A stretch of 64,000 bases of DNA from Syntrophotaleaceae bacterium (GCA_041390365.1 JAWKQB010000005.1:32457-96456), one strand, 5' to 3'. Counted from the first letter of the stretch, positions 29,725-51,920 are shown. Notes: a model not told the origin generated them from the sequence alone. Numbers and translations: made by a program.

Positions 29725-29752
29725 ATTACGCATTACGTATTACGAATTACGG
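29725..29752. repeat. heptamer tandem array, unit ATTACGN (4 units), overlapping the VKOR-DsbA stop region
   Basis: tattacg cattacg tattacg aattacg. Confidence 0.9.
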
Positions 29753-30711
29753 CTTTTCTTCTCTGCCTCTTTCGAAAGCCGCTCGATCTCCTTCAGAACA
29801 TTGCCGTACCCCTTGTGGGTTTCGCTGCTGCCCTTCTGATAAACCACGAGGGTGGGGGTGCTGCGGATTCCGTCCTCGGTCAAAAGCTGGTTGTAGAAGC
29901 TGAAATCGGCGGGCTGCTCGGGGCAGACCGCGTCGCTGCCCATCTTCCTCAGAAAGGCCTGAAGGGTGGCGGGGGTCGTCAGATCCTCTTTGGCTGCGGC
30001 AAACAGCAGATTCCGGTCGAGGAGCGCTTCGCGGATGCCGACCCCGGGCTTCAGCATGGCGAGAAAGCAGGTGGCATAGAGCGGCGTCGGCCGGTGCATG
30101 GGGACATCGATGAAAACGACCTTTGCCCGGCCGCTTTCGACCAGGGCGACGAGACCCTCTTCCAGCTCCGGTTCTAGCCTTCCGCAGGGGCCGCAGAAGT
30201 AATCGGTGTAGAGGCGGATCTCGGTGGGGCCGGTGCCGAAAACGGGCAGCGCGGAGGGCGACTCCCCATAGCTGACCACCGGGGCCGCGGCGAAGGAGAG
30301 CAGCAGGAACAGAAAACCGAGAGGCACGGCCACCGCCAGCGACCGGAAACGTTTGGCCTGGAAATTGACCAGAAACAAGCCGATCACAACCCCGCCGAAC
30401 GTCAGGCAGAAGGGGCAGTAATCACCGGTGCGCACCTGGTAGCCGATCAGAAAAACCTCCGCCCCGACCCCGCTCGCCAGCATCCACCAGGCCGGCAGAT
30501 GCCAATCCCGGAGAATGCAGAAGGTGAGGGCGCCCAGGTAGAAGATGCCGATCAGGTTCAGGTCAAGCCCGGCCAGGGTACCGCTGACCCCGGCACAGGA
30601 ATCGGAACAGTTCAGGTACAGGATGATCGTTCCGAAACCCACCACCAGCAACGCCAGGCTGATCAGACGCCTGGTGTCCAGCGACGGCAGCAATACTTCG
30701 ATGCGATGCAT
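29740..30711 (-). CDS. VKOR-family membrane thiol oxidoreductase fused to a periplasmic DsbA/thioredoxin-like domain
   Basis: N-terminal 4-5 TM helices with loop cysteines (NCSDSC) and a membrane CPFC. C-terminal YTDYFCGPCGRLEPELEE thioredoxin-fold CxxC. Confidence 0.7.
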   Translation of the reverse strand: MHRIEVLLPSLDTRRLISLALLVVGFGTIILYLNCSDSCAGVSGTLAGLDLNLIGIFYLGALTFCILRDWHLPAWWMLASGVGAEVFLIGYQVRTGDYCPFCLTFGGVVIGLFLVNFQAKRFRSLAVAVPLGFLFLLLSFAAAPVVSYGESPSALPVFGTGPTEIRLYTDYFCGPCGRLEPELEEGLVALVESGRAKVVFIDVPMHRPTPLYATCFLAMLKPGVGIREALLDRNLLFAAAKEDLTTPATLQAFLRKMGSDAVCPEQPADFSFYNQLLTEDGIRSTPTLVVYQKGSSETHKGYGNVLKEIERLSKEAEKKSRNS

Positions 30712-30730
30712 GGGTAATCTCCTGAAAGCA

Positions 30731-30789
30731 GGGGCTAGGGGCTGGGGGGTAAGGGTTATTCAAGACCTCAGTAGCCGATAGCCAGATTC
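30731..30789. repeat. two short heptamer arrays (GGGGCTR x4, then CAGTAGC-type x3)
   Basis: ggggcta ggggctg gggggta agggtta ... cagtagc cgatagc cagattc. Confidence 0.8.
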
Positions 30790-30881
30790 GGGAGCCACTC
30801 TAGTTAGCACTTTTTCGTTATTTATTTGTTTTCTGCTAGAGGTCGGTTAGATCGGAAGGGGGGCATCCTAAACCTTTTTCT

Positions 30882-30965
30882 GAACGCAGATAAATGCGGA
30901 TAAAGGCGGATAAAATCTTCATCGGCTTTAGATATATCTGTGTAAATCCGCCTTTATCTGCGTTC
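30882..30965. repeat. long bulged inverted repeat (20 bp of stem, 10-nt duplicated bulge, 34-nt loop)
   Basis: gaacgcagataaa[tgcggataaa]ggcggat ... atccgcc tttatctgcgttc. Both arms were read directly from the sequence. Confidence 0.85.
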
Positions 30966-30990
30966 GCTCAAAAGTGTTTTTTCCCTTTTC

Positions 30991-31017
30991 TCTGTGAGCT
31001 CTGTGCGCTCTGTGGTG
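30991..31017. repeat. 9-nt direct repeat x3 (TCTGTGNGC)
   Basis: tctgtgagc tctgtgcgc tctgtggtg, just downstream of the parvulin gene stop. Confidence 0.8.
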
Positions 31018-31036
31018 ATAGCTTTTAAAACGGGAT

Positions 31037-32005
31037 TCAAGGAATTATTTCAACCCTTGCGGCGGCTCGGCGGGAGTCAAGGAATTCCTTGATCTGTGGC
31101 CCGGCCTTGGCTGCCCGCACTTCCTGCAGGGCCCTGGATCTGAGATTGTCGAAAGCAGGAAGCTCGGCCACCTGATGTTCCCGGACGAGGATGAGATGGA
31201 CGCCGTCATCGGTCACAACCGGTTCGCTGATCTCACCCGCCGCCAGGGCAAAGGCCACCTCGGAAAAGGGGCGCACCATTTCGACGAAGGTGAAGCAGCC
31301 GAGATCCCCGCCCTGCTCCCTGCTGGGGCAGTCGGAGTGTTTTCGGGCCAGCTCGGCGAAATCCTCCCCGGCCAGGAACCGCTTCCGAAGTTCCCCGATC
31401 TCCCGGCGGACGCGCTGCTGTCCCGACTGGCCCTCCTCGTCGGCAACCGCTTTCAGGATGTGGGCCGCACAAACCTTGTCAGGGCTGCCGAGACTGCCGG
31501 CATGCTCCCGATACCAGGCCTGGGCTTCCTCTTCGGTGACTTTCTGAGCGCGAATGAACCTGACATCGAGAAAATCGCGGATCATTTCACTTCTTGTCAG
31601 CTCTTTGAGCAGCTGCATTTCGTTGACGCCGAGTTCCTGCAGTTCACGGGAAAAGGCCGCTTCGCTGCGGAATTGCGATTTCAGGGCGGCGAGCTTTTTC
31701 ATGGCCGCGGGTCCGTTCGGCTTCCAGCCGGCGTTCACCGCTTCCTGATAGAGAATTTCCCGCCGGATCAGGCTTTCCAGAAGATCCTCGCGACCGACCG
31801 GCGGGGCAACCGTCACCAATCCGCCGGGAGCCGCCTGGCGCAGTTGACGCCGCCACTGCCATTCCAGCTCCCCGGCGGTGATCGGGACATCATTCACCCG
31901 CGCAATGACCCGCTCCGGATTCTGTTCGCCGGCAAAAAGCGGGGAGACACTTAAAAGGAGGATGCAACCAAGCAAGGTGAAAACAAGGGGATATCGAAAT
32001 AGCAT
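31037..32005 (-). CDS. secreted parvulin-type peptidyl-prolyl isomerase (SurA/PpiC-like; EpsD-type position in PEP-CTERM loci)
   Basis: Signal peptide MLFRYPLVFTLLGCILLLSVSPLFA. SurA-like N-domain. Rotamase core AAHILK...FAELARKHSDCPS...GGDLGCF....MV.PF..VAF.L..GEIS.PV.T..G.HLI. Confidence 0.8.
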   Translation of the reverse strand: MLFRYPLVFTLLGCILLLSVSPLFAGEQNPERVIARVNDVPITAGELEWQWRRQLRQAAPGGLVTVAPPVGREDLLESLIRREILYQEAVNAGWKPNGPAAMKKLAALKSQFRSEAAFSRELQELGVNEMQLLKELTRSEMIRDFLDVRFIRAQKVTEEEAQAWYREHAGSLGSPDKVCAAHILKAVADEEGQSGQQRVRREIGELRKRFLAGEDFAELARKHSDCPSREQGGDLGCFTFVEMVRPFSEVAFALAAGEISEPVVTDDGVHLILVREHQVAELPAFDNLRSRALQEVRAAKAGPQIKEFLDSRRAAARVEIIP

Positions 32006-32040
32006 TATCTATCTCTTTTAAAATTTAAATCCACAAATGC

Positions 32041-32136
32041 GTTAGGTGTGAGGAGTGAGGCGTAAAAGCCTTTTACCAATCACGCATTACGCTTTACGAA
32101 TTACGGACTTCGAATTTACCAGCCACCAGCCCCTGC
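32041..32136. repeat. heptamer arrays: GTGAGGN x3-4, then CACGCAT/TACGNNT x5 running into CCACCAG-type units
   Basis: gttaggt gtgagga gtgaggc gtaaaag ... cacgcat tacgctt tacgaat tacggac ttcgaat ttaccag ccaccag. Confidence 0.9.
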
Positions 32137-32139
32137 CTT

Positions 32140-32943
32140 TCACTGCAACGTATTCTTGATCACTTTCTGCCGATAGTTCTGAACCAGGTGTTCGACTTCA
32201 ATCTTTTTCAGGCCGGTGATCGGTTCCTTGGCCAGCAGGGCGGAAAACACTCCCTTGTTTTCGTAGGCGTCGAGCAGGTCGGAGGCAGCCGCGCTCAATT
32301 CGGCGTTGTGGGCCGTGCAGCGGTCCCGCTGCCCGGTAGTGTACTGGAGCTTTTTCTCCAGCTGCTGCCCGGTCGCCGCCAGCTTATCGGACTTATCGTT
32401 GGCCTGTTTCAGGGCGGTTTTCAGCTGGCCGTTTTCAGTCTTCAGCTGTTCGTTGCGGGCCTTCTCCGCCGTCATCTTCTCGTTCGTCCGGGCGATCTCC
32501 TGCTGCAATTCCCGGATCTGCCGCTGGGCCTTTCCCACCGAGGTCTGGCTGTTCTGCACCAGCCCGTCGTACTCCTCCTGGAGCTTGTCCAGCTGGGTTT
32601 TCAGGGTTTCGCTCAGCCGCTGGGCCTGTTCGGCCCGGACCCTTTCTTCCGCGTGGCGGCGCTGCAGCTGGTCCATTTGGCCATTCAGTTCGGCCACCTG
32701 TTGAAGATGGGCCCGCTGGGTCCTGCTGTGCTGAAAAAATCCGAAGCCCCCCCCAGCCATGGCAAACAGCAGTACCCCGATCAGGGCGAACATCCAGGGC
32801 CGTGCGGACTGCCCGGAGCCCTGCTCCTGCGGATCCGACGCTCGGGGCGGTTCCAGTCCTGAAGGTGGGGCGATCTTCACGCTCGGCGTTGCGGGCGCCT
32901 CCGGTGATGGTGCGTTGTCATTCTGCCGGCCGGGAATTTTCAT
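32140..32943 (-). CDS. membrane-anchored coiled-coil protein, function unknown
   Basis: Trimmed to the ATG at 32943 (MKIPGRQNDN...). One TM (PWMFALIGVLLFAMAGGGFGFF), then about 170 aa of heptad-like Q/E/K-rich sequence. Confidence 0.55.
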   Translation of the reverse strand: MKIPGRQNDNAPSPEAPATPSVKIAPPSGLEPPRASDPQEQGSGQSARPWMFALIGVLLFAMAGGGFGFFQHSRTQRAHLQQVAELNGQMDQLQRRHAEERVRAEQAQRLSETLKTQLDKLQEEYDGLVQNSQTSVGKAQRQIRELQQEIARTNEKMTAEKARNEQLKTENGQLKTALKQANDKSDKLAATGQQLEKKLQYTTGQRDRCTAHNAELSAAASDLLDAYENKGVFSALLAKEPITGLKKIEVEHLVQNYRQKVIKNTLQ

Positions 32944-32960
32944 GGCGATTTCCTTTAATC

Positions 32961-33037
32961 CGTAAGTCGTAAGACATAAAACGTAAGGGGTAGAGATTAA
33001 AACCAATTACGCTTTACGCATCACGCTTTACGATGTT
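32961..33037. repeat. 11 in-phase heptamers switching from CGTAAGN to the complementary CGCTTTA/CGCATCA orientation
   Basis: cgtaagt cgtaaga cataaaa cgtaagg ggtagag attaaaa ccaatta cgcttta cgcatca cgcttta cgatgtt. Confidence 0.9.
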
Positions 33038-34545
33038 TAAAACTTCGCATTCAGATCCACCTGCAGGGTGTCGACGCCGAGCTGTTCCCGCTCGATCTCG
33101 TCGGATGACTGCCACTTGGCGCTGAGCCAGGTATTCTTCATCAGACCGAATTCTGCGCCGGCCACCCAGCCCTTGGAGTTGGTGCCGCCGAGGTGGAAGT
33201 CGGAATCGGTGAAGGAACTGAGTACTGCGTCGGCCTCGATGTATCGATAGTAGCCGTAAACGTTCCAGCGTCCCAAATCGTCGACCTTTTCGTGGCCGAT
33301 GGCGGCACCGAACATATAGCCCATATCCTGGTCGCCTTCGAAGAATTCGAAGCCGCTCCGTTCATCCACCTCCTCTTTGTCATAGCCGATATTCTTGACA
33401 TACTCGCCGAGAAACACCAGATGGATGGGATCCCATAAAGCGATGTCGAGGGTGGCGAGGATGTCGAGTTCATGGAAATCGGCGGCAAGGCCGACGATGC
33501 TGTCCCCGCCGAGGTTCAGAATCGGGGTATTGTCAAGTTGCAGGGACCTGGGGGAGGCATCCTCCTCGAGAGAAGTATCCCCTCCAAGGGGGTCCGTCTG
33601 CTGCCGCCCCTCGGTGTGGGTGAAATGGTAGTAGGCGGCGGCCATGTTGAAACGGACCAGGTCATGGCGGCCAACGTTGATTCCGACCTGCCCGCCATAG
33701 AGCCATTTATCCTTTTCAGACCGCTCGATCTCCTGAATGGGGAAGGCACCGACCGTGGCGAAGGCTCCAAGCCAGTCGAGGTACTGCTGGCGGTAGGTAA
33801 GGGCCAGTCCCTCGAAGTTCAGGTCCTTGTCCCAGATTAGGTCGGTAGAGAACCAGGGGTTGGGGATACGGCCGCCGGTGACGGACAGCAGCGGGATCGG
33901 CCGCCACTCCAGATAGGCTTGGTCGAAAAGCACGCTGTCCTTGTTGAAGGTATCGCCAAGCGTGTCGTTGGTGGAGATTGGATCATCGTCGTTGCCGGTC
34001 GCCAGGCGAAAGGCCGCCTTGAGTTCGTCGGTGACCTGCGCGGCCAGAGAGATGCGGGCACGGTAGCGGAAACGCTGACGATCCTCGGTGGTGTTGATAA
34101 TGGAGTCAAGATCATTGGGATCCGGAAAAGATTCGAAATTCCCCTCATCAAAATAATCACCCTGATACCGCAGGCGGATGTCGCCGCCGATCTTGATCCG
34201 ATTCAGCCAATCGGGCAGTTTGATGGCCGGCTGCGCGGGTGCAGCCTGGGTGGCAGGGGCGGGCGAGGAGGTCAGCCGGACTGAACCGTCCGCACTTTCG
34301 ACCGCTCTCACCGGAGCCCTTTCCTCCCGGATTTCGGCTGCAGGCACCTCAACCACAGACCGCTTCTGCAGCATTACGGCCTCGTCCGCGCTCAGCACCC
34401 CCTTCTCCCGCAACAGATCGATCAGGGCGGACAGATCGACATTGCCGCCACCGCCGGAAACCGCGGCAGAGGAATGCATGGGTGCCAACAGAAAACATCC
34501 GATCATCAAAAGCCCGCTTAAAAACAGCGCAAATGGCTGCAGCAT
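33037..34545 (-). CDS. outer-membrane beta-barrel (porin-like) protein, not a TonB-dependent receptor
   Basis: ATG at 34545 with an AGGAGGA SD. Signal peptide MLQPFALFLSGLLMIGCFLLAPMHSSAAV. Aromatic-rich alternating strands and a C-terminal ...VDLNAKF beta-barrel signature. About 500 aa with no plug-domain or TonB-box pattern. Confidence 0.55.
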   Translation of the reverse strand: MLQPFALFLSGLLMIGCFLLAPMHSSAAVSGGGGNVDLSALIDLLREKGVLSADEAVMLQKRSVVEVPAAEIREERAPVRAVESADGSVRLTSSPAPATQAAPAQPAIKLPDWLNRIKIGGDIRLRYQGDYFDEGNFESFPDPNDLDSIINTTEDRQRFRYRARISLAAQVTDELKAAFRLATGNDDDPISTNDTLGDTFNKDSVLFDQAYLEWRPIPLLSVTGGRIPNPWFSTDLIWDKDLNFEGLALTYRQQYLDWLGAFATVGAFPIQEIERSEKDKWLYGGQVGINVGRHDLVRFNMAAAYYHFTHTEGRQQTDPLGGDTSLEEDASPRSLQLDNTPILNLGGDSIVGLAADFHELDILATLDIALWDPIHLVFLGEYVKNIGYDKEEVDERSGFEFFEGDQDMGYMFGAAIGHEKVDDLGRWNVYGYYRYIEADAVLSSFTDSDFHLGGTNSKGWVAGAEFGLMKNTWLSAKWQSSDEIEREQLGVDTLQVDLNAKF

Positions 34546-34626
34546 ACTTTCCTCCTGGGTATTTGAAAAAGTAATCAACAATTAGAAGCCGTAATACATT
34601 GTGCGTAAGGCACAATAGGTTTTAAC

Positions 34627-34654
34627 CCCTCACTCCTCACCCCTCACTCCTCAC
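34627..34654. repeat. heptamer tandem array, unit YCCTCAC (reverse orientation of GTGAGGR), 4 units
   Basis: ccctcac tcctcac ccctcac tcctcac. Confidence 0.9.
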
Positions 34655-34660
34655 GCGTTC

Positions 34661-35344
34661 CTATCCTCTCGCCGAAATTTTCACATACATCGCCAGCGGC
34701 ATGTCCGGCGGGGGGGGCTCCCGCAACTGGAGGACGGGCAGCACCTCGAGCAGGGCCCGGTCCATCCGGTCGTCGCCGGAGGAATCGACCAGCTTGAAGT
34801 CGATTATGCGTCCGGTGGCATCGAGCTCTATCCGGACCTTGGCCTTGTTGTCCCCTTCGGGCCAGCCTCCGGATTGTTCGAGAACCCTGCGCATCTCCCG
34901 GCGGATCTGGTCTTGAAGCATGCGGGTGTACCAGGCGTACTTGCGCAGCAGCGAACTCTCTCCGATGTCGCCCCCGATGAGGGACCGACCGCCCTTCTTG
35001 CCGACCAGCCCGAAACCATCCCCCCCGGCGCTCCCCTCGGCATCGACACCGAGGTTCTCGCCGGGCGGCGGCTCATCGGAACTTTCGGCCACATCCTCCT
35101 GCGCCTGCGGTTCCGGCTCGATGATCTCCTCCTCTTCCACCTCGGGAGGAGGCGGCTCCTCCTCGGGCGGAGGCGGGGGCGGAGGCGGCTTGACCAGGGT
35201 TACCATGGTCATCTGGCCCTTAGGCTTGATCTCGCCGGAAAACAGCAACGCCTTGAGCATCCAGATGCCGAGGGCCAGGAAAAGCACCACCACCGCAATG
35301 TAGGCGATCCAGATGGGCTGGAAGCCTTTGTTTTTCTTTGCCAT
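34661..35344 (-). CDS. tonB: TonB-family energy transducer
   Basis: Trimmed to the ATG at 35344 (MAKKNKGFQPIWIAYIAVVVLFLALGIW). Pro/Glu-rich spacer PPPPPPPPEEEPPPPEVEEEE. The C-terminal approx. 80 aa are TonB_C-like. The track extension to 35479 is a translation of the GAGTCCC array. Confidence 0.7.
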   Translation of the reverse strand: MAKKNKGFQPIWIAYIAVVVLFLALGIWMLKALLFSGEIKPKGQMTMVTLVKPPPPPPPPEEEPPPPEVEEEEIIEPEPQAQEDVAESSDEPPPGENLGVDAEGSAGGDGFGLVGKKGGRSLIGGDIGESSLLRKYAWYTRMLQDQIRREMRRVLEQSGGWPEGDNKAKVRIELDATGRIIDFKLVDSSGDDRMDRALLEVLPVLQLREPPPPDMPLAMYVKISARG

Positions 35345-35361
35345 TATGAAAATCCGTATTT

Positions 35362-35508
35362 CAAGTCCCGAGTCTTTAATACGGTCCCGAGTCCCGAGTC
35401 CCGAGTCCCGAGTCCCGAGTCCTGAGTCCTGAGTCCTGAGTACTGAGTCCTGAAGCCTGGACCTTGGACCCGGGACCATGGACCGCCTTTTGACCTTGGA
35501 CCGCCCCT
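35362..35508. repeat. 21 in-phase heptamers (147 bp) filling the ExbD-TonB spacer; the unit drifts GAGTCCC -> GAGTCCT -> GGACCNN
   Basis: ggtcccg agtcccg x4 agtcctg x3 agtactg agtcctg aagcctg gaccttg gacccgg gaccatg gaccgcc ttttgac cttggac. Confidence 0.95.
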
Positions 35509-35914
35509 ATTTAACCAACTTCTGCGTCACCAGACCCAACTGAGTGATGTCGAGTTTCATCAGCACATCGAGTATGCCGATGATCTGGCTGTAAAACACC
35601 TGTTCGTCGCCGCGGACCACCACCGGCAGATTGGGGTCGGCGGCCTTGTACTGCCGCAGCATGGTTTCGAGTTCGGCCATGGTCACCGGGTAGCTGTCCA
35701 GGTAGATCTGTCCGTCGGCGGCCACGGTGATCGCCTTGGTGCTCGGCTTGACCTCGCTGACCACATTGCTCGCCTTGGGCAGGTTGATCTTGATCCCCTG
35801 CACGGCGGAGGTCACGGCGATAATGAAGACCACGAGCAGGGTCCAGGCCAGGTCGAGCAAAGGGGTGACGTTGATATCGTCCATCACCTTCTGGTCGTAA
35901 AGATCGCGTCTCAT
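35507..35914 (-). CDS. exbD: ExbD/TolR-family biopolymer transport protein
   Basis: 135 aa. INVTPLLDLAWTLLVVFII single TM with the conserved Asp, and a periplasmic ExbD fold pattern. Stop/start is 1 nt from the exbB-like gene. Confidence 0.8.
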   Translation of the reverse strand: MRRDLYDQKVMDDINVTPLLDLAWTLLVVFIIAVTSAVQGIKINLPKASNVVSEVKPSTKAITVAADGQIYLDSYPVTMAELETMLRQYKAADPNLPVVVRGDEQVFYSQIIGILDVLMKLDITQLGLVTQKLVK

Positions 35915-37761: not shown

Positions 37762-40700
37762 TTAAAGCACAAACCCAGTGACCTCGACATCCAGCCACTT
37801 GCCGAGGAAGTCGTCCACCACCTTGGCGGGGGTCAGACCATCCCGCGGGCCGAAGCTGGCCGCCTGTTCGACCAGACTGCTGACTTCGGTCAAACTGGAA
37901 ACGCCGGCCAGGGCACCAAGTCCCGAGGTGCCGGAAGAGGTCGGAACCCCGACGGAACCGAGGGAGAAGCTGATGTTCTGAGCATTGCGCACCTCGGTGG
38001 CGGCCAGCAGAATGCGCCCGCCGGCGATGCCCGCCTCACCGGCGTCGATGATCCCCTCGGGAGCGACGAGGATGATGTCGCCAGGATCGGGCTTCTCCTT
38101 TATCCCAGCCACACCGTCCGGATCGTAGGTCAGGGCGCGGATGCCGCTGCCAACAGCAGGCGGAGAATAGGAAACTCGATATTCGCCATACTCATCCACA
38201 TATATAGTTTTGTCTGTCTGGCTGATGGCAGTGCGGGAACCACGGCCGGCATTAATGTCCCCCTGGTCGGCCCAGACAAAAATATCGCTTCCGCCATAAG
38301 TCATGACTCTCGATTCAAAGACGTTCAGATCACCGATATTCAAGATCGAAATATCGCCTCCCGCAGTGGTAAAAATACCCGTGCCCTTGTTGGTCCCGCT
38401 GTCGTTGATGCTGCTGCGGCCCACGTCGATATCCCCTGCAGCTGCGATGTAGATGTTGGAGGCTCCAGCAGTGGTGCTGATCAATGATTCCACCATTTTG
38501 AGATAACCTCTGCCAGCCTGGCGTTCCGTAATCCCCGGCGCCGGGCCAAAAACCATTTCGATGAGCTCGCTGCGTGCTTTTTCGACGATGGCATTGGCAT
38601 CAGCCGTGCGGCCGTCGGCCTGGGCCTCGACCAATTCCTGTCCGTAAACCTTGAGTGCGGCGAAAAACACGGCAGCGTCCTCCAGGGAAAAGTTCTCTGT
38701 TGCGTCCGTGGTGGAAACCTTCGTATCGTAACCCACCAGCACCAGCAGGTCGGCCCCCTCTGACCCCAAAGCCGAGTTTTTTGCACTGCCGCTGGCAACG
38801 ATTCCTCGCGAGGTTCCGAGATCAAGGCTGTACCCGGCCTGAACAATCAGCGCACCGGGGCCGCCCTGTTCAATGCCGAACAGGGATTCCGTGGCCGTAT
38901 TTTTCTTCAGTGCCGACTCCACCACGATACTGTTGCTTGCGGAAATGAGAGAAACATCATCCTCATTGAAGTTTTGGCCTACGTACCGAAGATAGCGAAT
39001 ATCTCCTCCGGCGGTGATGTGTGCCATCTTGGGCAACCGAAAGGCGATGTTCTCGATGTTGCGACCGGCTGTTATCTCGATGGCCTGGCCGTCGTCCTTG
39101 TGCAGGTCGCTGTTGCGATTTGACGCCTCGGCACTGAAAAACTGACTTTTGTCGATGGACCCATCCGTGGCGTAAACATCTGCGGGATCGTCATCGTTCA
39201 TGATAATGCCAGAAATGGTTTGCCCAACAGACTCGGCTCTAATGTCTCGCCCGGCAACCAACTGCAGATTGCCCTCGCTGGACGGGAGCATTCCGAAAAG
39301 CTGCTTCAACACGATGTCGCGGCCCGCTTGGATCACCACGGTTGCCGGCAGCACGCTTCGCCACCAATCCTTTGCGTCGTCGGAGGGATAAATAGGATGT
39401 TCGCCATACAGGACAACGTCCCCACCGATGCTTTGCAGGAACATACTGGTCTCCTCGGTCATACCAAGGGTCCAAGTGGTACTGGAGGATGTCATGCCCT
39501 CGTGATCAGGATGAGCAATGAAAGGATCGACCACTGATGCGTGCAGATCTCCCTGAGCGGTGACCTGCAGGACAGTATCGAGTATTTCGAAGGACTGCTG
39601 GTCGTCGGTTGCACCTATATTACCCAGGGAGGCAATAGAGGCCGTTCCCTGCCGGTTGAGAAACCTCCCCGACAGGTCGCCGCCGGCGCTCAGCGTAAAG
39701 TTGCCGCTGCCGAACGTACCGGCCTGGGTAGTGAAGTCGGCGCCTGTCCGCACCGTCAGGTTTCCACCTCCCAGAGTGGCCAGTCCCTGAGTGGTACTCG
39801 ACCCGTCGTAACTGGGTTGCCAGGAATATTTCCTCACTCGTCTGCCATTGATCATGACCAGCTTTGAAGTTACCTTATCCCAACCATTCCTGTTGTATCC
39901 CCCGATGATCGAACCATCCACATCGACAAAAACATCGCCACCGTGATCGTAATCCCAGTAATCAGTTGCCCCCGCCTGCGCCTCTCCCAGGGTGCGCACG
40001 GTTCCCAGTGTGTTTCCGCTCTGATTGAGGGACAGGTTACCGCCGATCCGCAGATCGATGTCGCCGGTGGCGGTCTGGATGACCCCGCCGTTGATGGTCA
40101 GGTTACCTTCGGTCCTTACCTCTACGGCACCAGAATAGGAACCGATGTTGAAGGGGATGGCCGAAGAGATCATGGTGCCGCCATTGACTGCGGCGGTGCC
40201 GATATGAATGCTGTCACCGGCAGCCAGCGTGACCGGCCCGCTTTCGCTGTAGACCTGCAGATTGTTGCCGATGGTGAGGGTCCCCGTATCGCGAACCGTG
40301 GCGGTAAAATCGGCGGCAGCCGGATCTGCGCCTGCCACCAGACTGATACCCCAGGAATCCTGTACGGGGCTCGTGGTCATTACTCCATTGCCATCCCTGA
40401 CAGTGCCAGTCACTGTCATGTTGCCAGCAGCACGAACCACCAGGTTGCCGAGTACGTTCGAATCCGAAAGATTCAACGCACCGACCGTCAGGTTCCCGTC
40501 GGACGTCGCCTCGATTCCGGCTCGCAACTGCAGTGCCTCGATGTCGGTCGATTCGAGAGCCAGGTTATCGAAGAGATCTTCCGCATTGGCGATCCAGGCT
40601 TCGGCATCGGCCAGATAGGAATTGAAGATGATCTGATTCAAAGGACCGTCGACCGAGTAGGTTTCCACTCCTTCGGCAATGACCTTATCGGCCCCGATGA

Positions 40701-43700: not shown

Positions 43701-46700
43701 AAGAAAAACTATCCTGATCGGCTAAACCTGATCCTGCAAAGGCCGCGAATTCGCCTGCCAGATCATCGGGCACCTCGGGGAATATCCTCCCGGTCATTAT
43801 AAGGTCGCCGCTGTGGGCCAACTTGCCGGACCAGGTCAAACTATCTGAATCATCACGAAGACGAAGCTGGTAATCGAAATCGCTTACCCGCAATTCCCGG
43901 TCGGCCCCCAGGTAGACATTATCGAAGCCTGAAAGCTGAAGGTCCCCGACCAGGTCGATCCATTCACCGGCTAGAACCAGTTGTCCCTCGCCAATAGCCA
44001 CCGCATCGGCATCCTCAAAGACCCCCACCGAATTGATCAAACGCACCCAGGGAGACTCCAGCCATACGTCCGCATCTTCCCCGGCCGTAATCCTTGTTGT
44101 ATCCAGAACCAGGGAACGGTCTAATCGGGCGCTAATTTCACCGTTGAACGACAATCCGCTATAGCCGCGCAGAGTGAGGGCATCGAACCCGCCGGCAAGC
44201 CAATAATCAAAGTCCTCGCTGTCCAAAGACCAGTTCGTGGTCAAGTCGGTGTTGATCAAGGTCAGAGAACCACCCTGACCACTGGCCCTGTAAGCTTTGG
44301 CGAGGAGTTGACCACCCAGTTCAAGATTTGCGAAGGACAAGGTAATCTCCCCCGGATCCCCGCCGATGGGCACCTGGTTCAGTCGATGGTATTTATCCCG
44401 TATCCAGGTACGGGTGTCAGGTGCGGCGGATACATCAACAACCGCTCCTTCGGCAATCAGCAGGGTATCGCTCGAGGTTATAGTCACCGAGCCCCCGTCA
44501 TGGGGGGACTGCGACCGGACCAGACCTGAGGCAGGTGCGGTGCCGGGCTCATTCCAGCCGCCCGCCAGGATGCGGGCCTCTTCACCGAGAATCAGGGGGT
44601 CATACCCCAGCGTGGCGAAGGTACTCGAAGCCGTCACATTCACCTCACCAGCCAGGGCTTCCAGCACACCGTTGATCTCCACCCCTGGACCGGAAATGCC
44701 GATCTGCCCGGTCGGCCCGACACTCAGGGTGGCACCGCTTTCCACTATGGTTCGGGCGATCCTCGTTTCTTCCTCTGGCACAGAGGGGTCCGGCTTGGCA
44801 TCGATTGGTTTACCGGAGGCCAGTGTGATTGTCGATGCACCGAGGTATCCAGGCAGCGGCTGTCCATCGGCGGCATTGGGAACCTGCCAAGCCGTGCTGC
44901 TGGGGAAGATGCCCAGAGCTTCGTAACGGGATTGTTCGGCACTGGTTTCTGTGTTGAATTCGCTTCCCGGTTGAAGCCGGGCAACCGAAGGTTGAAGATG
45001 GACACCGCTTTTTACAATCAAATCTCGAGCACTTTTGAGATTGATACGTGTGAAGCCGCTGTCTCTCAATTGGGTGGTGCTCAGAACCAGTCCTTCATAC
45101 CCGGGAGGCAACTCGCTGTCCGCCGTCATACCGCTGTCACCCACCAAAGCAGCGGTAACAGTTAAATCCGACGCATGAAGATTGAGTTCGCTGCCTGTCT
45201 GTCCGATCAGGGCCAGACCGGTCAGCTCACCGTCCAGGAACAGGGCGTCGCCCTGGATGGTCAGGCTGCCGGCATCGCCCCCCTCAATGTCTCCGTCCTC
45301 CGACCACTGGTAGCCTCCGCTGACGTCAATGCGGCTTCCTTGGGCCAACACAAGAGCGCAGACCGGTGAAGCCAAATCTGAAATTGTGACCGTTCCACCA
45401 TCGAGAATGCCCTGCACGATGCTGTCGCTGCCGCTTACAAGGCGATTGTCGTTCCGTTCCCCGGACACGTCGATCACCGCTTTTTCGCCGAGATAGAAAC
45501 GGCTTTCATATTCTCCATAGCGGGGGTCAGCTTCAGTGGTTGAAGTTACGTTTTCCAGGAGGGAGTAGGCCAGGTCTCCCGACGGAACATACACCCTGCC
45601 CTCCTGAATGATGCGCCGGGCATAAACCGATAGACTTCCCCCCGCCTGCAACCCGATCTCTGCATTTTCAGCCAGGGTGAATTCTCCATTGGTTGATACG
45701 GTCAGGCTGCCCAAACCGGCCTCTTCGATCTTCCGTGCAGAAATGATATTGATCTGATTCTCATTGAGTTCGTCTGATTCCGAAAAATCACTCAAAGACG
45801 TAGTTGAATCGACAACCCGCACTGATTCGAGGATTGCATCGCGATCGCCCGGACTATTGTTATCCCCAATCAATTCCCCAAGCTGCAGGAAACCTCCCTT
45901 GGGCCGTAACAGGCTGAGAAGCCCCTTCGCCTCTTCTTTATTGTCGTAAATCTGATAGGCGCCTATTGTGGCCTGACCCTTGAGGACCCCGTCGAGGACG
46001 ATACGGGGCGCGATGAGTTTCAGAATGCCTGCATCGGCTCCGGCGACATGGTCGGGGATATATTTTTCGACGTTCTTTGTCGCACTGTACCTGCCCCACT
46101 GAGAGGCACTGGCAATGTCGGGTAAGGAACTGCCGGAAACGAGCCCGGTAACTTCGACAGTTCCGGAATCATATTCGATGCCGCCACCGGAAAAATCCAA
46201 CAGCGCTCCATCGCGGACGATAATATCAGCGGTGTTGCCGGCTTCCTGGTTGAGACCGGAATTGATGATTATGGTACCGCCGGTGGTGGCAAGCTCGGCT
46301 GCGGTCTGCTCCTGGGTGTTCAGAACGCCGCTGACATCCCCGATGGCCGAACCCTCGGTAGCCAGGAAACGAATGGTCTGACCCTGCAGTATCCCGCCTT
46401 TCTGGGCAAAATAATCCCGCAGTTCCAGGCTGTTGAGGGTTGTTTCGAGCACCAGGGATTCGGCGCCCTTGGTGACCCAAAGACCGCTGACGTCGATGAT
46501 GCTGTCCTCAGCCAGATAGACTCTCTCACCTGCATCAATAGTTACATTGCCCGAAGGAGCGTCGATGATGCCGCGATGTTCCACTCGCGCCACCGTGTCT
46601 TCGCTGTCATAGGAAATGCCGTGAATCTTGATGTTGGCATCAACCTGAATATTTTTATCCACTACATAGGTCTCAGTGGACGGGGTAATCGGGGTACTGG

Positions 46701-47850: not shown

Positions 47851-47867
47851 TGTCGCCCCCTATCGAA

Positions 47868-47923
47868 AATCAGTGATCAGTCATGATTGATCAGTGATCG
47901 GTGTTCAATGACTGAAACCTGAC
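47868..47923. repeat. heptamer tandem array, unit GATCAGT (8 units)
   Basis: aatcagt gatcagt catgatt gatcagt gatcggt gttcaat gactgaa acctgac. Confidence 0.9.
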
Positions 47924-47967
47924 CAGAAAATAGATTTGTTATTTAGCGTGGACCAGCAACAAGCAAC

Positions 47968-49575
47968 CTAAAAGTAATATTTCAGCCGGAAATGGCCCCG
48001 GATGTCGCCGCTGTCGGCGCGGGCGGTGGCCGAGAGGGCCATGGCCAGGTCGAGCTCGTAATCGAACATCTTCCACAGTTCGCCGCGCAGACCCAGTCCG
48101 GTGCCCTGCAGTTCGAACTCGTCCGTCTGATCGGGCAGGGGATCCTTGACCCACAAACGGGCATAGTCGTAGAACAGATAGGGGCGCAGTTCCATCCAGT
48201 TCTCCCAGCCGGCCAGTTTGCCGACGTCGGGCAGCAGCCATTCGATGGAGGCGCGGACCCCGTTGTCCCCGAGGGAATCGCTCTCCTTGTAGCCGCGAAC
48301 GCTTTCCATGCCGCCGGCGGAGAACTGCTCGCTGGACACAAGCGGTTCGCTGGCCACCTGACCCTTGACCGCCAGGGCCAGGTCCATGTCCCAGGGCAGC
48401 TGCTGCTCCCGCTCCAGGCCGACATTCAGGTAGAAGTAGTCGCCCCGGGCCTGGTAGCGCTTGCCGGAGAACTCCTCCTCGCTGCCGACCAGACCGCGAA
48501 AATGCCAGTTGAGGGCGGCCTGCAGGCGGGTGTTCCCCGTCTTGCCGAGCAGGGTGCCGTTGTAGCCAATGGAGAAGGGGAGGTAGGAGATGGGGGTTTC
48601 GGTGTCCTCCTCGTCCTCGCCGACAAAACCGAGGGTTTCCTCGAAATCCTTGTAGTCCACGCCAAAGCTGATGGAGTGGTAATACTTCTTGTAAGGGTCC
48701 AGGGGCACCAGATAGCGGGCGCCGAGAATGAAACCCTTGCCGATGACGTTGAAGCCCTCGCCGAAGGCGGTCTCGCTGTCGGTCCACAGGGCGTAGCCGG
48801 CCAGGTAATGCTTTTTCTGCCAGGGCGTCGGCAGCACGTAGGAGCCGCCGAGGACCTGCACCTCACTCGGCTCCAGGGGCGCTGTCTGGTACTGGAAGGA
48901 GGCCGAATGCTTGCGCTGCCAGAGATTGTCGTAGCGGATCAAGCCATTGAGCCGCAGCTCGCTGGTATCGTGAGTCGAGCGGTTGTTTATTTCGACACTT
49001 GCATGCAGAGGCATCCGGTCCTCGACGGTCAGCACCACGTCGTCCACCCCCATGTCCCGGGCCGGCTCCAGCTTGAGCCGCACGGTCAGGTCGGGGTTGG
49101 CGTTGAGGGCGTTGAGCTGCTCTTCCACATCGGGGATGTAGATGATCTTTCCCGGCTGCAGCGCGGGCAGCTCCTCCATAATGCCGGCCTTGGTGAAGTA
49201 GCGGTTTTCGTTGACCAGCACCTGGCCGATGCGTGATTCGATCACCTTGAGACGGATTTCGCCCCCCTCGACCATCTGCTCCGGAATGTTGACCATCACC
49301 CGCAGGAAGCCGTTTTCCTGGTAGAACTTCTCCAGCTTGGTCCGGGCGTCCTCGACGACATCGGCGGTTTTTTCAGGACCGGTAAATTCCATGAGCAGTT
49401 CGTCGAGCAGTTCGCCGGGATACAGGGTGTTGCCCTCGACGACGAACTGGCGGATCTCGAAGGTCGGCCCTGCGTCGGTCTCCGCAGATTGTTCCTCAGC
49501 CCAGACCGTGGATGCCAGAAACCCTGCCGCAAGGATGAGACTCAAGATGCTTACAGCCAAACGCAGCGTCCTCAA
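47968..49575 (-). CDS. TpsB transporter (ShlB/FhaC/HecB family, POTRA + 16-strand barrel)
   Basis: POTRA-like FEIRQFVVEGNTLYP...LEKFYQENGFLRV. Barrel ending ...GHFRLKYYF. I prefer the TTG at 49575 (GGAGGA SD 6 nt upstream, giving MRTLRLAVSILSLILAAGFLASTVWA). The track ATG at 49656 adds 27 aa that are a translation of heptamer repeats. Confidence 0.85.
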   Translation of the reverse strand: MRTLRLAVSILSLILAAGFLASTVWAEEQSAETDAGPTFEIRQFVVEGNTLYPGELLDELLMEFTGPEKTADVVEDARTKLEKFYQENGFLRVMVNIPEQMVEGGEIRLKVIESRIGQVLVNENRYFTKAGIMEELPALQPGKIIYIPDVEEQLNALNANPDLTVRLKLEPARDMGVDDVVLTVEDRMPLHASVEINNRSTHDTSELRLNGLIRYDNLWQRKHSASFQYQTAPLEPSEVQVLGGSYVLPTPWQKKHYLAGYALWTDSETAFGEGFNVIGKGFILGARYLVPLDPYKKYYHSISFGVDYKDFEETLGFVGEDEEDTETPISYLPFSIGYNGTLLGKTGNTRLQAALNWHFRGLVGSEEEFSGKRYQARGDYFYLNVGLEREQQLPWDMDLALAVKGQVASEPLVSSEQFSAGGMESVRGYKESDSLGDNGVRASIEWLLPDVGKLAGWENWMELRPYLFYDYARLWVKDPLPDQTDEFELQGTGLGLRGELWKMFDYELDLAMALSATARADSGDIRGHFRLKYYF

Positions 49576-49594
49576 CGCTTTTCCTCCATATAAA

Positions 49595-49705
49595 ATTCGT
49601 AATTCGTGATGCGTAAGGCGTAAGGGGTAAAATTCGGTCAAAAACCTTGGCTTCATGGCTACAAGCCTTTCTCACCAATTACCTGTTACGCCTTACGATT
49701 CACGG
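49595..49705. repeat. inverted pair of heptamer arrays (ATTCGTA/AGGCGTA versus GTTACGC/CTTACGA)
   Basis: cgtaaggcgtaa (49612-49623) is perfectly complementary to ttacgccttacg (49686-49697). The arrays flank a spacer of about 40 nt. Confidence 0.9.
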
Positions 49706-50896
49706 CATTTCAGTTTCCGCCAGTGCGCGCAGTTCCCGATACAGGATATTTCCGTCCTTGAACCCTTCCGCCTTCTGCAGAACCTCCCCATCAGGATTCA
49801 GGTAGACGACCATCGGGTAGTTTTCCTGCCCGAACTTCTCCTTGAACTGCTTTTCCACGTCCGAATTGATCTTCAGCCAGACGAACCGGTCCTGAAGACT
49901 TTTGACCCGGGGATCCTCCACGCTCTCGCCAAGCAGACGCTTGCACCAGGAACACCAGTCGGCGTAGAGAACCAGGACCGCCGGCTTGTTTTCCTGCCGG
50001 GCCCGTTTCAGGCCGCTGTCGAACTCCTCGCCCCAGACGATGATCTTTTCGTCGTAGGTACCGGCAGGAACCCGGGACAGAACCTCCAGGTCGAGAACGA
50101 GCGCCTTGCCGATCGTCAGGGGGTTGGCGTCCACCGTGAAAGAGACTCCATCGGTTGCCACGATTCTGCCCTTGCGGTCCTCGAGCATGAATTCGGCTCC
50201 GAGTTTGGGAGTAAGCCGCGTGAGGATCTTCTGATCCTCGACAAGGATCTGCACGGTGCCGAACGGTTCCTCTATCTCTTTTCCGTTTTCAGCCTGCATT
50301 TCGAGAACAACCGAACTTTCCTCGACTTTTGCGACCCTGGTCTGAATATAGGGTGAAAGGTGCAATTCCCTGCCGACCTCAGGAAAGCCGCCGGTCAATT
50401 GCACATATCTTTCTGCGGGCAGTACCAGGCTGACGGGAAAAACCTTTTCGCAGGGCAGCTCACGACGCAGAGAGGGATCGGCAGGGCCGAAAGCCTCCTC
50501 AGAAGGTACGGTCACAGTGCGGCTTTGGCCGGGAACCATGTCGAGCACCGCGCTCGCCAGTCCGGGCACGACAGCCGCCTTCCCGGCAACAACCTCCTCG
50601 GGCCGATACGCTTCCGGATCACGGTAACCGTCCATTCTGGCCCTGTCCGGATCGCGGGCCACTCCCTCGCGGGTAGTGTAGAGCAACCGACCGTCCTCCA
50701 GGGTCGCCGTCACCTCGACGGTCACGACATCTCCCGGGCCGACCGGACTGGAAGGAACCTCGGCAGAGGATGCATTTTTCGCCGTATCGATGACCGGAGA
50801 TGCGCAGCCAGCGGCAAAGAGGGCTCCAGTCAGGCCCAAAAGGCATAAACAGCTGAGACATAACCTTTTCAAGCAGATGCGCACCAGACCGATCAT
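49700..50896 (-). CDS. lipoprotein: SlyD-like FKBP-type PPIase domain(s) fused to a C-terminal thioredoxin-fold domain
   Basis: Lipobox LFAAGC. GDVVTVEVTATLEDGRLLYTT ... VDANPLTIGKALVLDLEV (FKBP/SlyD pattern). C-terminal AVLVLYADWCSWCKRL (Trx CxxC). ATGA overlap with the upstream FKBP gene. Confidence 0.65.
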   Translation of the reverse strand: MIGLVRICLKRLCLSCLCLLGLTGALFAAGCASPVIDTAKNASSAEVPSSPVGPGDVVTVEVTATLEDGRLLYTTREGVARDPDRARMDGYRDPEAYRPEEVVAGKAAVVPGLASAVLDMVPGQSRTVTVPSEEAFGPADPSLRRELPCEKVFPVSLVLPAERYVQLTGGFPEVGRELHLSPYIQTRVAKVEESSVVLEMQAENGKEIEEPFGTVQILVEDQKILTRLTPKLGAEFMLEDRKGRIVATDGVSFTVDANPLTIGKALVLDLEVLSRVPAGTYDEKIIVWGEEFDSGLKRARQENKPAVLVLYADWCSWCKRLLGESVEDPRVKSLQDRFVWLKINSDVEKQFKEKFGQENYPMVVYLNPDGEVLQKAEGFKDGNILYRELRALAETEMP

Positions 50897-51705
50897 GGAA
50901 TCTGACTCTCCTCTCCCCTGGAAACCTCAACATCGCAAACCAGATTCTGGCCGGCCAGAGGATGACCATAATCAACGGTGAAAAAGGCATCGTCCACATC
51001 GGCAACCTTGCCAACCATAGGACCCGAACGCACCAGATCTCCTTTTTCCACTAGGATTTCCAGCAGATAGGAGTTCTGATCGGCACTGACCCTGGCCCTG
51101 CCAAAGGGGGTATCGATCAATTCGCCGACGGGGGCGTGAAAGTCGACCACCACTTCGCTTTCGCTGACTGAAGTCACTTTTCCCGGGATGGCCGGATCGA
51201 AGGTCATTTCCTGACCAATTTCGGGATTTTTCCCGGTCCGGCCTTTGTATTCATCGACGGTCATATGCAGCCCTCGGGGGCGCCGCCGCACCTTCGCCAG
51301 CCTTATGGTCCCGGAGGGCCTGACCGGGGCCTTGGCCGCGGCAACTTCAATCCCGCTCAAAGTCCCCGGTACCTGACCAACGACGGCCTGTCCAAGCTGA
51401 ACGGCGATGGCATCAGCAAAATCGAAGGGGGCCGAGCCGCTCTGGGAAACCTTTTCCTGGCCTGCGATCCATTCAAGAGGAGCATCGTTTTTCAGAGCCA
51501 GGTAGATGGCGGACCTCTTCTCCTCGGGGCTGATCGCTCCATCCCTGTAGGTGGAGGCGGTCAGTTCGCCATTTTTCAGGCGGCAGACATAATTTATCCG
51601 CACCCTGTCACCGCTCCGGAAAGGCATTTCATTCTGCGCAGCCGCCGGATATGACACCAAAATGGCTGCGCCCAACAACAAATAAGTAAATAGAGAGAAC
51701 TTCAT
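50893..51705 (-). CDS. secreted SlyD-like FKBP-type peptidyl-prolyl isomerase
   Basis: ATG at 51705 with a GGAG SD (MKFSLFTYLLLGAAILVSYPAAA signal). GDRVRINYVCRLKNGELTAST ... VDYGHPLAGQNLVCDVEV. Confidence 0.7.
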   Translation of the reverse strand: MKFSLFTYLLLGAAILVSYPAAAQNEMPFRSGDRVRINYVCRLKNGELTASTYRDGAISPEEKRSAIYLALKNDAPLEWIAGQEKVSQSGSAPFDFADAIAVQLGQAVVGQVPGTLSGIEVAAAKAPVRPSGTIRLAKVRRRPRGLHMTVDEYKGRTGKNPEIGQEMTFDPAIPGKVTSVSESEVVVDFHAPVGELIDTPFGRARVSADQNSYLLEILVEKGDLVRSGPMVGKVADVDDAFFTVDYGHPLAGQNLVCDVEVSRGEESQIP

Positions 51706-51741
51706 AGGCACTCCGTCAATTCGCGTCATTTATCCGGGCGG

Positions 51742-51793
51742 CAAAAAAACAAAACCCCAGCCGATAGGGTGCAATAAACCCTCTCGGCTGGGG
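51742..51793 (-). terminator. strong Rho-independent terminator, 37 nt upstream of the FKBP start codon
   Basis: Minus-strand RNA CCCCAGCCGAGAGGG-UUUAUUGCA-CCCUAUCGGCUGGGG (14 bp, 1 mismatch) followed by UUUUGUUUUUUUG. Confidence 0.8.
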
Positions 51794-51920
51794 CTGTTCG
51801 ATACCTGATAAGGTCGAACCGGTAACCCGGCCTCTGGTGTCCGATACTTTTCGCGGCCGAAAAGGCCGTATTTCCGGTCGCCGGCTGCCTCAAAAGATTC
51901 CCGGACGACACGGGAACTTT
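51794..51920 (-). promoter_or_regulatory. structured leader (candidate riboswitch, attenuator or small RNA) ending in the terminator above
   Basis: Successive hairpins in the minus-strand RNA: UUCCCG-ugucguc-CGGGAA; CCG-GAA-AUAC[CGGCC-uuuuc-GGCCG]CGAAAAGUAUCGG; GUUCGA-ccuuaucaggua-UCGAAC. No upstream minus-strand gene exists, because the neighbouring gene is divergent. Confidence 0.45.

Follow-up and report, generated by a model that had tools for sequence, protein, structure and literature searches.

A conserved gene cassette links a two-partner secretion pair to a TolQ-like, TonB-type motor in a Syntrophotaleaceae bacterium and in distant relatives

A stretch of 64,000 nucleotides from a Syntrophotaleaceae bacterium (GCA_041390365.1, JAWKQB010000005.1:32457-96456), referred to here as the window and numbered from its first letter, harbors a string of genes in which a two-partner secretion (TPS) pair is followed by a Ton-like motor module with its own outer-membrane barrel. 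The core of this string consists of seven genes, namely those for the exporter TpsB, the giant TpsA, a fused DUF2341-LamG-ExbB protein, ExbD, a TonB-like protein, a Porin_5 barrel and a coiled-coil protein. Across phyla, this TPS pair and the Ton-like module co-occur near-obligately, and are therefore very likely parts of one functional unit. Gene content and order strongly indicate that the cassette belongs to the family of the Pseudomonas aeruginosa gene cluster PA0690-PA0699. The cassette family has been recorded before, its mechanism being uncharacterised, and the member in the window has its own accessory genes and an exopolysaccharide (EPS) context. New here are the lectin-fold head on a TolQ-like stator, the OmpM-like porin, the apparent lack of the H1 helix in TpsB, and a conserved strand in the tail of TpsA.

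The synteny survey used the fused ExbB as query, with one genome per species, and covers the best 80 loci, at 35-71% identity. Neighboring genes were counted by phmmer with the window proteins against six-frame open reading frames (ORFs); denominators are the loci with enough flank, and a flank distance of 10 kb was used for the TPS and EPS linkage counts. Hundreds of homologues share the three-domain architecture of the fused ExbB. The 80 cassette loci derive from Desulfobacterota, Nitrospirota, NC10 as well as Gamma-, Beta- and Alphaproteobacteria, the closest being an uncultured Syntrophotalea metagenome-assembled genome. ExbD lies beside the fused ExbB in all 80 loci, TonB is never missing from the cassette (75 of 75 loci), Porin_5 is missing once (69 of 70), and at least 54 of 64 loci have the coiled-coil protein after Porin_5. 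By an automatic criterion, the gene immediately upstream of the fused ExbB is a TPS gene in 64 of 75 loci, or in 67 once three artefacts of overlapping ORFs are corrected, and 71 of 75 have a TPS gene within 10 kb. The conserved linkage of Ton-like and TPS genes, on which the preliminary description of the window had staked its reading, is thus decisively present. The order of genes is sometimes permuted (TpsA-TpsB-ExbB; TpsB-ExbB and so on to the coiled-coil gene and then TpsA; or Porin_5 moved upstream), and the survival of the linkage through such permutation points to selection on co-inheritance. The G. pickeringii locus has the gene order of the window at only 40% identity. A reverse survey of metagenomes, starting from TpsB, finds a giant TpsA after the closest TpsB relatives, and where the flank is adequate the fused ExbB, ExbD, TonB and Porin_5 follow (13 loci, no counter-examples). 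Beyond the coiled-coil gene, neither all-against-all clustering of neighbors nor a Pfam census of 140 downstream ORFs reveals a universal gene; parvulin, EPS, type II secretion system and regulator genes occur there sporadically.

The closest architecture on record is that of P. aeruginosa. The papers on VreI list PA0690 (tpsA/pdtA), PA0691 (phdA), PA0692 (tpsB/pdtB), PA0693 (exbB2), PA0694 (exbD2) and PA0695 (tonB4), followed by PA0696 (putative outer-membrane porin), PA0697 (unknown), PA0698 (YbjN family) and PA0699, a PpiC-type peptidyl-prolyl isomerase (PPIase). The genes PA0690-PA0699 are induced by sigma-VreI and PhoB during phosphate starvation, the genes from phdA through PA0701, including pdtB, are transcribed from one promoter (PphdA), and PdtA, PA0696 and PA0698 accumulate at low phosphate. 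Llamas et al. (2009) had already linked PUMA3 to TPS, exbBD and PA0696 homologues in other bacteria, with P. fluorescens, P. entomophila, B. vietnamiensis, R. palustris and Janthinobacterium as examples; in B. vietnamiensis, tpsB is found with exbBD and PA0696 homologues beside PUMA3. The claim that the combination is undescribed can hence not be upheld. In the literature the TonB module of the P. aeruginosa cluster is termed "still uncharacterized", and no added functional account of it was found in later publications.

Like the window, the P. aeruginosa cluster PA0690-PA0699 comprises a giant TpsA, TpsB, ExbB, ExbD, TonB, a porin, a helical protein and a PpiC PPIase. The window differs in that genes of the vreAIR, Hxc, phdA and YbjN kinds are absent; extra to it are two FKBP genes, a thioredoxin membrane protein and a leader with terminator, and its cassette adjoins an XrtD PEP-CTERM EPS locus in a Desulfuromonadales-like genome. 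Genes for an extracytoplasmic function sigma factor or FecR, as in PUMA3-type control, are not found among the annotated window ORFs. P. aeruginosa does not appear among the matches listed for the fused-ExbB searches (best 120 and best 80), nor does any Pseudomonas among those of the Burkholderia-seeded search (matches listed at 61% identity or more). In Burkholderia, FecR/DUF4880 and T2SSK genes precede the cassette at the loci L074 (B. lata) and L164, and the gene order of these loci (TpsB, DUF2341-LamG-ExbB, ExbD, TonB_2, Porin_5, a 230-aa protein, YbjN and a rotamase) is that of PA0692-PA0699. Upstream of TpsB both loci also carry an ORF that is transposase-like and Phd-antitoxin-like, together with DUF4915 and APS-kinase genes (L074:2038-3846, and likewise L164), and a DegP-like protease is encoded downstream. 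The upstream Phd-like ORF echoes the P. aeruginosa phdA.

Gene calls in the window were made from an ORF map together with Pfam and NCBIfam scans of the window ORFs. Eleven consecutive genes, all on the minus strand, occupy 29740-51729 behind a structured leader and with no interruption, as initially described. All large annotated ORFs between 434 and 51729 (~51 kb, including the whole EPS locus) are likewise on the minus strand; since this co-directionality extends beyond the 22-kb string, it is by itself weak evidence for a unit.

The motor is encoded by three consecutive minus-strand genes. The stator A-subunit (35916-37688) consists of a signal or transmembrane helix, a periplasmic head of DUF2341 and Laminin_G_3 domains, and a MotA_ExbB channel domain, the assignment drawing on Pfam, AlphaFold2 and Foldseek; it is followed by an ExbD/TolR-type B-subunit (35507-35914; Pfam and NCBIfam) with a transmembrane Asp in the motif TPLLDLAW, and by a TonB-like transducer (ORF 34661-35479; Pfam TonB_2 and NCBIfam). 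Pfam E-values are 4e-27 for MotA_ExbB, 2e-23 for ExbD and 2e-9 for TonB_2. The transmembrane Asp of ExbD ('LDLA') is conserved in 83 sequences, and the channel motifs GLLGTVxG and APGVA are conserved among the ExbB proteins. The motor carries the residues that proton conduction requires. In the AlphaFold2 model of the A-subunit (pLDDT 91), an N-terminal helix is followed by a pair of beta-sandwich domains (residues 37-360) and by a bundle of three transmembrane helices. In Foldseek searches the C-terminal half matches TolQ of E. coli and A. baumannii in TolQR(A) complexes, with a TM-score of 0.85 when normalised to target length; the head matches jelly-roll lectin folds, namely clostridial neurotoxin binding domains, the lectin domain of a trans-sialidase, and pentraxin. 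The DUF2341-LamG didomain also recurs as the repeat unit of giant surface proteins, which reach 7800 aa, with 1338 clusters found at E <= 1e-30. The lectin-type fold together with this recurrence suggests that the stator head is a binding module. A 2025 survey of stator evolution mentions DUF2341 only as an unexplained N-terminal appendage, and no functional description was found in the literature for DUF2341, DUF3739, Porin_5/PF16930, or for the combination of PEP-CTERM, hemagglutinin and TonB.

None of the curated equivalogs fits the motor. The NCBIfam scores are below the equivalog cut-offs for exbB (75 bits against 206) and ExbD (66 against 216), and also for TolQ (141 against 221), TolR (81 against 127) and TolA (28 against 59); the domain model tonB_Cterm is passed with 32 against 27. 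The TonB-like protein consists of an N-terminal transmembrane segment, a Pro-rich spacer, a conserved Gly-rich motif and the C-terminal TonB_2 domain. The first 45 codons of its ORF translate a heptamer tandem repeat (GTCCCGA x 9.6, 35384..35450) that sits in the exbD-tonB spacer, so the true start is probably Met46 (coding sequence 34661..35344). The resulting protein would have 227 aa, and its relatives have 223-240 aa.

TpsB (47968-49656, minus strand; POTRA_2 1e-13, ShlB 1e-17) is an exporter of the Omp85 family, and TpsA (37762-47850, minus strand) has 3362 aa with an N-terminal TPS domain (PF05860 4e-25; TIGR01901 1e-23, 83 bits against a cut-off of 29), a long beta-helical shaft and a conserved C-terminal DUF3739 region (6e-34). 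An Omp85 barrel with ShlB and POTRA domains together with a TPS domain at the N-terminus of its partner places the pair in two-partner (type Vb) secretion. The TpsB profile aligns to CdiB (6wim, E = 5e-22) from CdiB residue 44 onward, and POTRA1 begins ~12 residues past the predicted signal-peptide cleavage site. The TpsB of the cassette therefore appears to lack both the H1 plug helix and the linker that FhaC and CdiB have; the helix is typical of TpsB proteins in two-partner secretion, and not strictly defining for them. We note that the window TpsB has an unusually long stretch of ~30 residues before the hydrophobic core of its signal peptide.

In the TpsA proteins of the cassette, the conserved DUF3739 region is followed by a linker, a strand motif and an acidic tail. 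The motif reads KWLDVEVTGF in the window (37771..37800, minus strand), KW[LI][DE]V[KE]V[IV][GD]F in Desulfobacterota and Nitrospirota, and [ST]F[LI][ST]V[ED]V[IL]G[FL]G[DE] in Proteobacteria. The strict pattern is present within the last 60 aa of 55 of the 65 cassette TpsAs and in none of the random windows of the same proteins; the tails it misses are mostly near-matches or frameshifts. In an AlphaFold2 model of the last 272 aa, residues 1-210 form a beta-helix, and residues 211-272 are of low confidence (pLDDT < 50). A Foldseek search with this model gave no significant match, only generic beta-helices (E > 0.4). A tail predicted with low confidence that nevertheless holds a conserved motif is typical of a short linear epitope that folds upon binding, and the terminal strand of TpsA is a candidate for an epitope similar to the TonB or TolA box.

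The Porin_5 protein (ORF 33037-34581, feature 33037..34545, minus strand; PF16930, E = 1e-118) ends in a C-terminal DLNAKF signal and has a periplasmic N-terminal extension with a conserved helix. The best matches of a profile search against the PDB are 8bys and 8bym (E = 4e-9), spanning the stalk and both ends of the barrel; we take these entries to be OmpM of Veillonella parvula. Unlike OmpM, the Porin_5 protein has no SLH domain, and its extension helix has the motif LIxLLxxKGVxxxEEA. The profile match indicates a stalked porin, and the barrel has indeed no plug domain, as had been noticed from the beginning. The coiled-coil protein (ORF 32140-33006, feature 32140..32943, minus strand) is periplasmic, with a membrane anchor or, in Proteobacteria, a signal peptide; its C-terminal domain is conserved, and one of its Cys residues is invariant. 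A profile search against the PDB with this protein returned generic coiled coils only.

We favor a model, to which we give an even chance, in which the TonB-like arm engages the tail of TpsA in order to gate, retain or release the fiber. TpsB, apparently H1-less, would export the beta-helical shaft of TpsA with its N-terminus leading, and the DUF3739 end and the flexible tail with the KWLDVxVxGF strand would not leave the periplasm, by analogy with the C-terminal parts of FhaB and CdiA. The C-terminal domain of the TonB-like protein would bind the strand by beta-augmentation, in the manner of TonB and the TonB box or of TolA and the N-terminus of TolB. The five lectin-fold heads of the stator may join in, perhaps by engaging DUF3739. 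Proton flow through the TolQR-like stator would then be turned into a force that gates TpsB or that retains, tensions or releases the surface fiber, with the stalked porin and the coiled-coil protein as a putative scaffold on the outer-membrane side and in the periplasm. It is known that the C-terminal part of FhaB and CdiA is held in the periplasm during a regulated pause of secretion, and that the C-terminal domain of TolA binds a short N-terminal strand of TolB. The model of strand capture by TonB is favored on account of the FhaB/CdiA precedent and because the TpsA strand is the only universal short motif outside the motor.

Several points weigh against this model. In other known cases, two-partner secretion is self-sufficient. 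At four loci there is no TPS gene within reach, and in the Burkholderia loci TpsB is unaccompanied by a TpsA within 10 kb. That the C-terminus of TpsA is periplasmic is assumed from FhaB and CdiA, the contacts of TpsA with TonB and with the heads are inferred, and the likeness of the tail motif to TonB and TolA boxes is presumed. The family match to the PAO1 proteins, including the presumed head of PA0693 and the presumed assignment of PA0696 to Porin_5, rests on synteny and published annotation. Finally, transposon mutants of P. aeruginosa in tpsA, tpsB, PA0695 and PA0696 showed unchanged virulence in zebrafish, in an assay that is silent on secretion (Llamas et al. 2009). A stronger form, according to which the cassette would be the first type Vb secretion or adhesin system coupled to the proton-motive force (PMF), with a TonB arm that grips the TpsA strand, gates an H1-less TpsB and holds, retracts or fires the fiber, is possible and rather doubtful.

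Known systems resemble the cassette in parts. FhaB/FhaC and CdiA/CdiB have the same TPS domain and Omp85 exporter with POTRA domains; in contrast to them, the cassette has DUF3739 and a terminal strand instead of a prodomain or toxin, a PMF motor alongside, and a TpsB that is apparently H1-less. In the Agl-Glt and Agl-Nfs systems of Myxococcus, a TolQR-type motor, TonB-domain proteins and plugless barrels drive a surface process other than uptake, acting on an adhesin or polysaccharide. No TPS is known to be part of these systems, their many other Glt and Nfs components are not found in the cassette, and the cassette is widespread in taxa that are not known to glide.

Unlikely, in our estimate, is energised uptake in the manner of HxuCBA, in which TpsA would capture a polymer or nutrient, Porin_5 would import it, TonB would act on the porin extension and the heads would receive the cargo. 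The hxuCBA operon of H. influenzae provides the precedent for TPS combined with TonB-dependent import, as its TPS pair is coupled genetically and functionally to a TonB-energised outer-membrane protein. However, HxuC is a plugged TonB-dependent transporter and the operon has no genes for ExbB, ExbD or TonB, whereas the cassette encodes a plugless Porin_5 barrel and its own motor. Channel and TonB features are shared with TonB-ExbB-ExbD uptake systems; a cognate transporter is not found, as no Plug or TonB_dep_Rec domain occurs among the annotated window ORFs, which agrees with the reported absence of a TonB-dependent receptor in cis. By sequence profile, the nearest solved relative of the barrel is a porin for diffusion that also tethers the outer membrane. 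The homologue in P. aeruginosa is part of a regulon for phosphate scavenging, along with the Hxc secretion system and its secreted phosphatases, as uptake would suggest, yet in many lineages the cassette heads an EPS-export locus and not a nutrient regulon. The head has a carbohydrate-binding type of fold. TpsA, with more than 3000 aa, is far larger than known scavenger proteins. A strand, VVRVPYVPE, followed by an amphipathic helix is found in the periplasmic extension of proteobacterial and NC10 Porin_5 proteins (33 of 69; L033-L083, for example L044:13036-14661) and speaks for uptake; neither the window nor the other versions from Desulfobacterota and Nitrospirota have it, and VRVPYVPE was therefore rejected as a universal TonB box.

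Quite unlikely is a tether similar to Tol-Pal, consisting of the stator, a TonB/TolA-like arm, a CpoB-like coiled coil and an OmpM-like porin, which would stabilise or remodel the outer membrane locally, and so help it bear a very large fiber and a thick matrix, with no direct action on TpsA. The stator fold is closest to TolQ, which is also the top structural match, TolQ, TolR and TolA are the best NCBIfam models, the periplasmic coiled-coil partner is conserved, and the profile match of Porin_5 to 8bys and 8bym includes the stalk of what is presumably OmpM, a dual tether and porin. Unlike Tol-Pal, however, the cassette has no TolB or Pal homologues, every Tol model scores below its curated cut-off, the spacer of the transducer is Pro-rich and of TonB type rather than a long TolA helix, and the stator has an N-terminal lectin head. 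The conserved tail motif of TpsA and the near-obligate linkage to TPS would moreover be left unexplained.

A role as helper of EPS and PEP-CTERM export, in which motor and barrel would energise export, anchoring or remodelling of the adjoining XrtD/PrsT-type polysaccharide or of its sorted proteins, the lectin head would bind glycan and TpsA would serve as a matrix scaffold, is very unlikely. It draws on the neighborhood of the cassette. Downstream in the window and in the same orientation lies an XrtD/PrsT PEP-CTERM EPS locus with an exosortase XrtD (569 bits against a cut-off of 400) and PrsT (357 against 312; NCBIfam, 2031-8098), as well as an exporter of PEP-CTERM type. EPS or PEP-CTERM markers are found within 10 kb downstream of the cassette in at least 24 of 59 loci; an exosortase or PrsT adjoins the cassette in L003, L012, L030, L041, L124 and L125, and a Poly_export gene follows directly after the coiled-coil gene in several Beta- and Gammaproteobacteria. 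The link to EPS is thus far above chance and not universal: the proposed association with an EPS locus stands for these lineages, but not for Pseudomonas and Burkholderia, where the cassettes adjoin PUMA3 and Hxc genes instead. The Pfam census of the first three downstream genes is heterogeneous, the EPS locus of the window already includes a Wza-like exporter, and TPS linkage is much tighter than EPS linkage. That the Ton-like genes are independent neighbors serving distant TonB-dependent receptors is hardly credible: several TonB systems in one bacterium are common, but the synteny is near-obligate across phyla despite rearrangements, the P. aeruginosa cluster is transcribed as a single operon, and the unusual head and the dedicated porin and coiled-coil partners occur only in the context of the cassette.

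In the usual description, two-partner secretion proceeds across the outer membrane with no input of energy there. In the cassette, a PMF motor, a porin and a coiled-coil protein are tied near-obligately to one TpsA/TpsB family in at least six major lineages, which points to an unstudied energised step, be it gating, retention, release or cargo import. If the stronger form of the strand-capture model holds, PMF-coupled control of a fiber would be widespread and overlooked, from Desulfobacterota to Pseudomonas and Burkholderia. The same cassette is found in P. aeruginosa and Burkholderia, which are genetically tractable, so the role of the motor is testable there, with the lectin-fold head, the conserved strand in the TpsA tail, a TpsB that apparently has no H1 and the OmpM-like porin as handles for experiments. 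The answer would extend to many environmental bacteria in which the cassette heads polysaccharide loci for biofilms or flocs.

The remaining genes of the string encode folding and thiol enzymes, all on the minus strand. The first gene (ORF 50893-51729, probable coding sequence 50893..51705) codes for a SlyD-like FKBP with a signal peptide, with weak matches to FKBP26_IF and to the C-terminus of SlyD/FkpB; a homologue is found directly upstream of TpsB in most close relatives. The second (49700-50896) codes for a lipoprotein (lipobox AAGC) with an FKBP_C domain (1e-7) and a thioredoxin-like domain (Thioredoxin_7 1e-11, motif CSWC), and is conserved upstream of TpsB in relatives. At least one FKBP gene precedes TpsB in 29 of 35 close (Desulfobacterota-like) relatives, as opposed to 2 of 32 distant ones, and the two FKBP genes are clade-specific accessories. 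Downstream of the core lie a gene for a SurA_N and parvulin rotamase PPIase (31037-32005; Pfam) and one for a polytopic membrane protein with a Thioredoxin_4 domain (29740-30711). A parvulin is also encoded downstream of the cassette in L001, L003, L017, L020, L021, L028, L032, L034 and Burkholderia, and the thioredoxin-domain membrane protein was detected at no more than 2 of 59 loci, those of the nearest relatives (L001 and L002). The foldases that had been counted as part of the system are hence present in the window, but the FKBPs are limited to a clade and the thioredoxin membrane protein to two loci.

The membrane domain of the latter has the motifs CSDSC (CxxxC) and CPFC (CxxC), and the thioredoxin domain has CGPC. 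It had been read as a VKOR-DsbA fusion; the VKOR part finds no support in Pfam (Thioredoxin_4 at 5.5e-5 only), NCBIfam (nothing) or a PDB sequence search (thioredoxins only). A disulfide-rich cargo for the thiol-oxidoreductases was considered and rejected, as the cassette proteins are nearly free of Cys (3 in TpsA); the thiol-oxidoreductase modules are thereby left with no obvious disulfide substrate, save for the invariant Cys of the coiled-coil protein.

Ahead of the first gene, a promoter-like site, a structured 5' leader and an intrinsic terminator occupy 51706..51971 on the minus strand. The promoter match is of sigma70 type (TTGTCA-16-AATATT, 51971-51944), the leader RNA has a folding z-score of -4.3, and the terminator consists of a stem at ~51745-51797 followed by a U-run (hairpin of -34 kcal/mol) that ends ~40 nt before the start codon. 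The start of the FKBP gene is most likely the ATG at 51705 (MKFSLF...), which is preceded by a GGAG ribosome-binding site, rather than 51729. A spacer of 329 nt separates it from the divergent SLT_2 gene (52035-53153, plus strand); with this neighbor being divergent, the leader hairpin cannot terminate another gene. The layout has the predicted anatomy of an attenuator or of a riboswitch expression platform. An Rfam search of the whole window at gathering threshold matched no family, a permissive search of the leader gave best E-values of 0.14-0.39, well below gathering scores, and nhmmer found no homologue of the leader in 160 related loci. Of the "riboswitch-like leader" first proposed, the structured, attenuator-like leader with its terminator is retained, and the riboswitch label is not adopted; the leader may be a lineage-specific regulatory element.

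Two further observations concern the region upstream of the cassette. In Desulfobacterota-like loci (the window at ~51940-51950, as well as L096, L098, L105, L108, L119, L120, L123, L124, L125 and L128), elements of the type (C/G)TAACA, often in pairs, recur 40-100 nt ahead of the first gene of the cassette, and may be the site of a common regulator or alternative sigma factor. In eleven related metagenome loci (L089, L090, L096, L099, L101, L103, L107, L115, L122, L138 and L140), the FKBP gene is preceded at a distance of ~200 nt by a small conserved ORF (MDRMKRLIETI...F.GYIKINFSQGSLGRIEK...). This ORF is absent from the window, where the structured leader takes its position.

Within the EPS locus, the XrtD exosortase (VPLPA-CTERM type) is fused to EpsI and adjoins the TPR protein PrsT and a WecA-like initiating transferase. 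The locus includes an island of low GC content at 20000-25200 (0.36-0.47 as compared to ~0.60), which spans a Wzy-like polymerase, a GT4 glycosyltransferase and a gene with LamG and GHL10 domains, and looks like a horizontally exchanged segment of serotype type. The last of these genes (23361-25238) encodes a second LamG protein, consisting of Laminin_G_3 and a glycosyl-hydrolase-like GHL10 domain; this protein and the LamG head of the stator may have a common glycan ligand.

In the long minus-strand string, at least eleven of the gene junctions have a short tandem array of 7-nt units within them or next to them, namely at 1981-2011, 6183-6216, 6263-6298, 9250-9272, 9306-9343, 25920-25949, 29439-29462, 29725-29751, 34628-34654, 35384-35450 and 47869-47911. 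The unit differs from array to array, the longest being the (GTCCCGA) x 9.6 array between exbD and tonB, and there are none in the region of 52-64 kb. Their role could be in mRNA processing, spacing or slippage. The spacers at 29330-29739 and 30712-31036 are long and highly structured (-135 and -79 kcal/mol, respectively) and hold repeats of the type CGTAATG/ACGCATT as well as a long perfect hairpin. Both are likely operon boundaries, or elements similar to repetitive extragenic palindromes, between the cassette accessories and the sugar-nucleotide genes.

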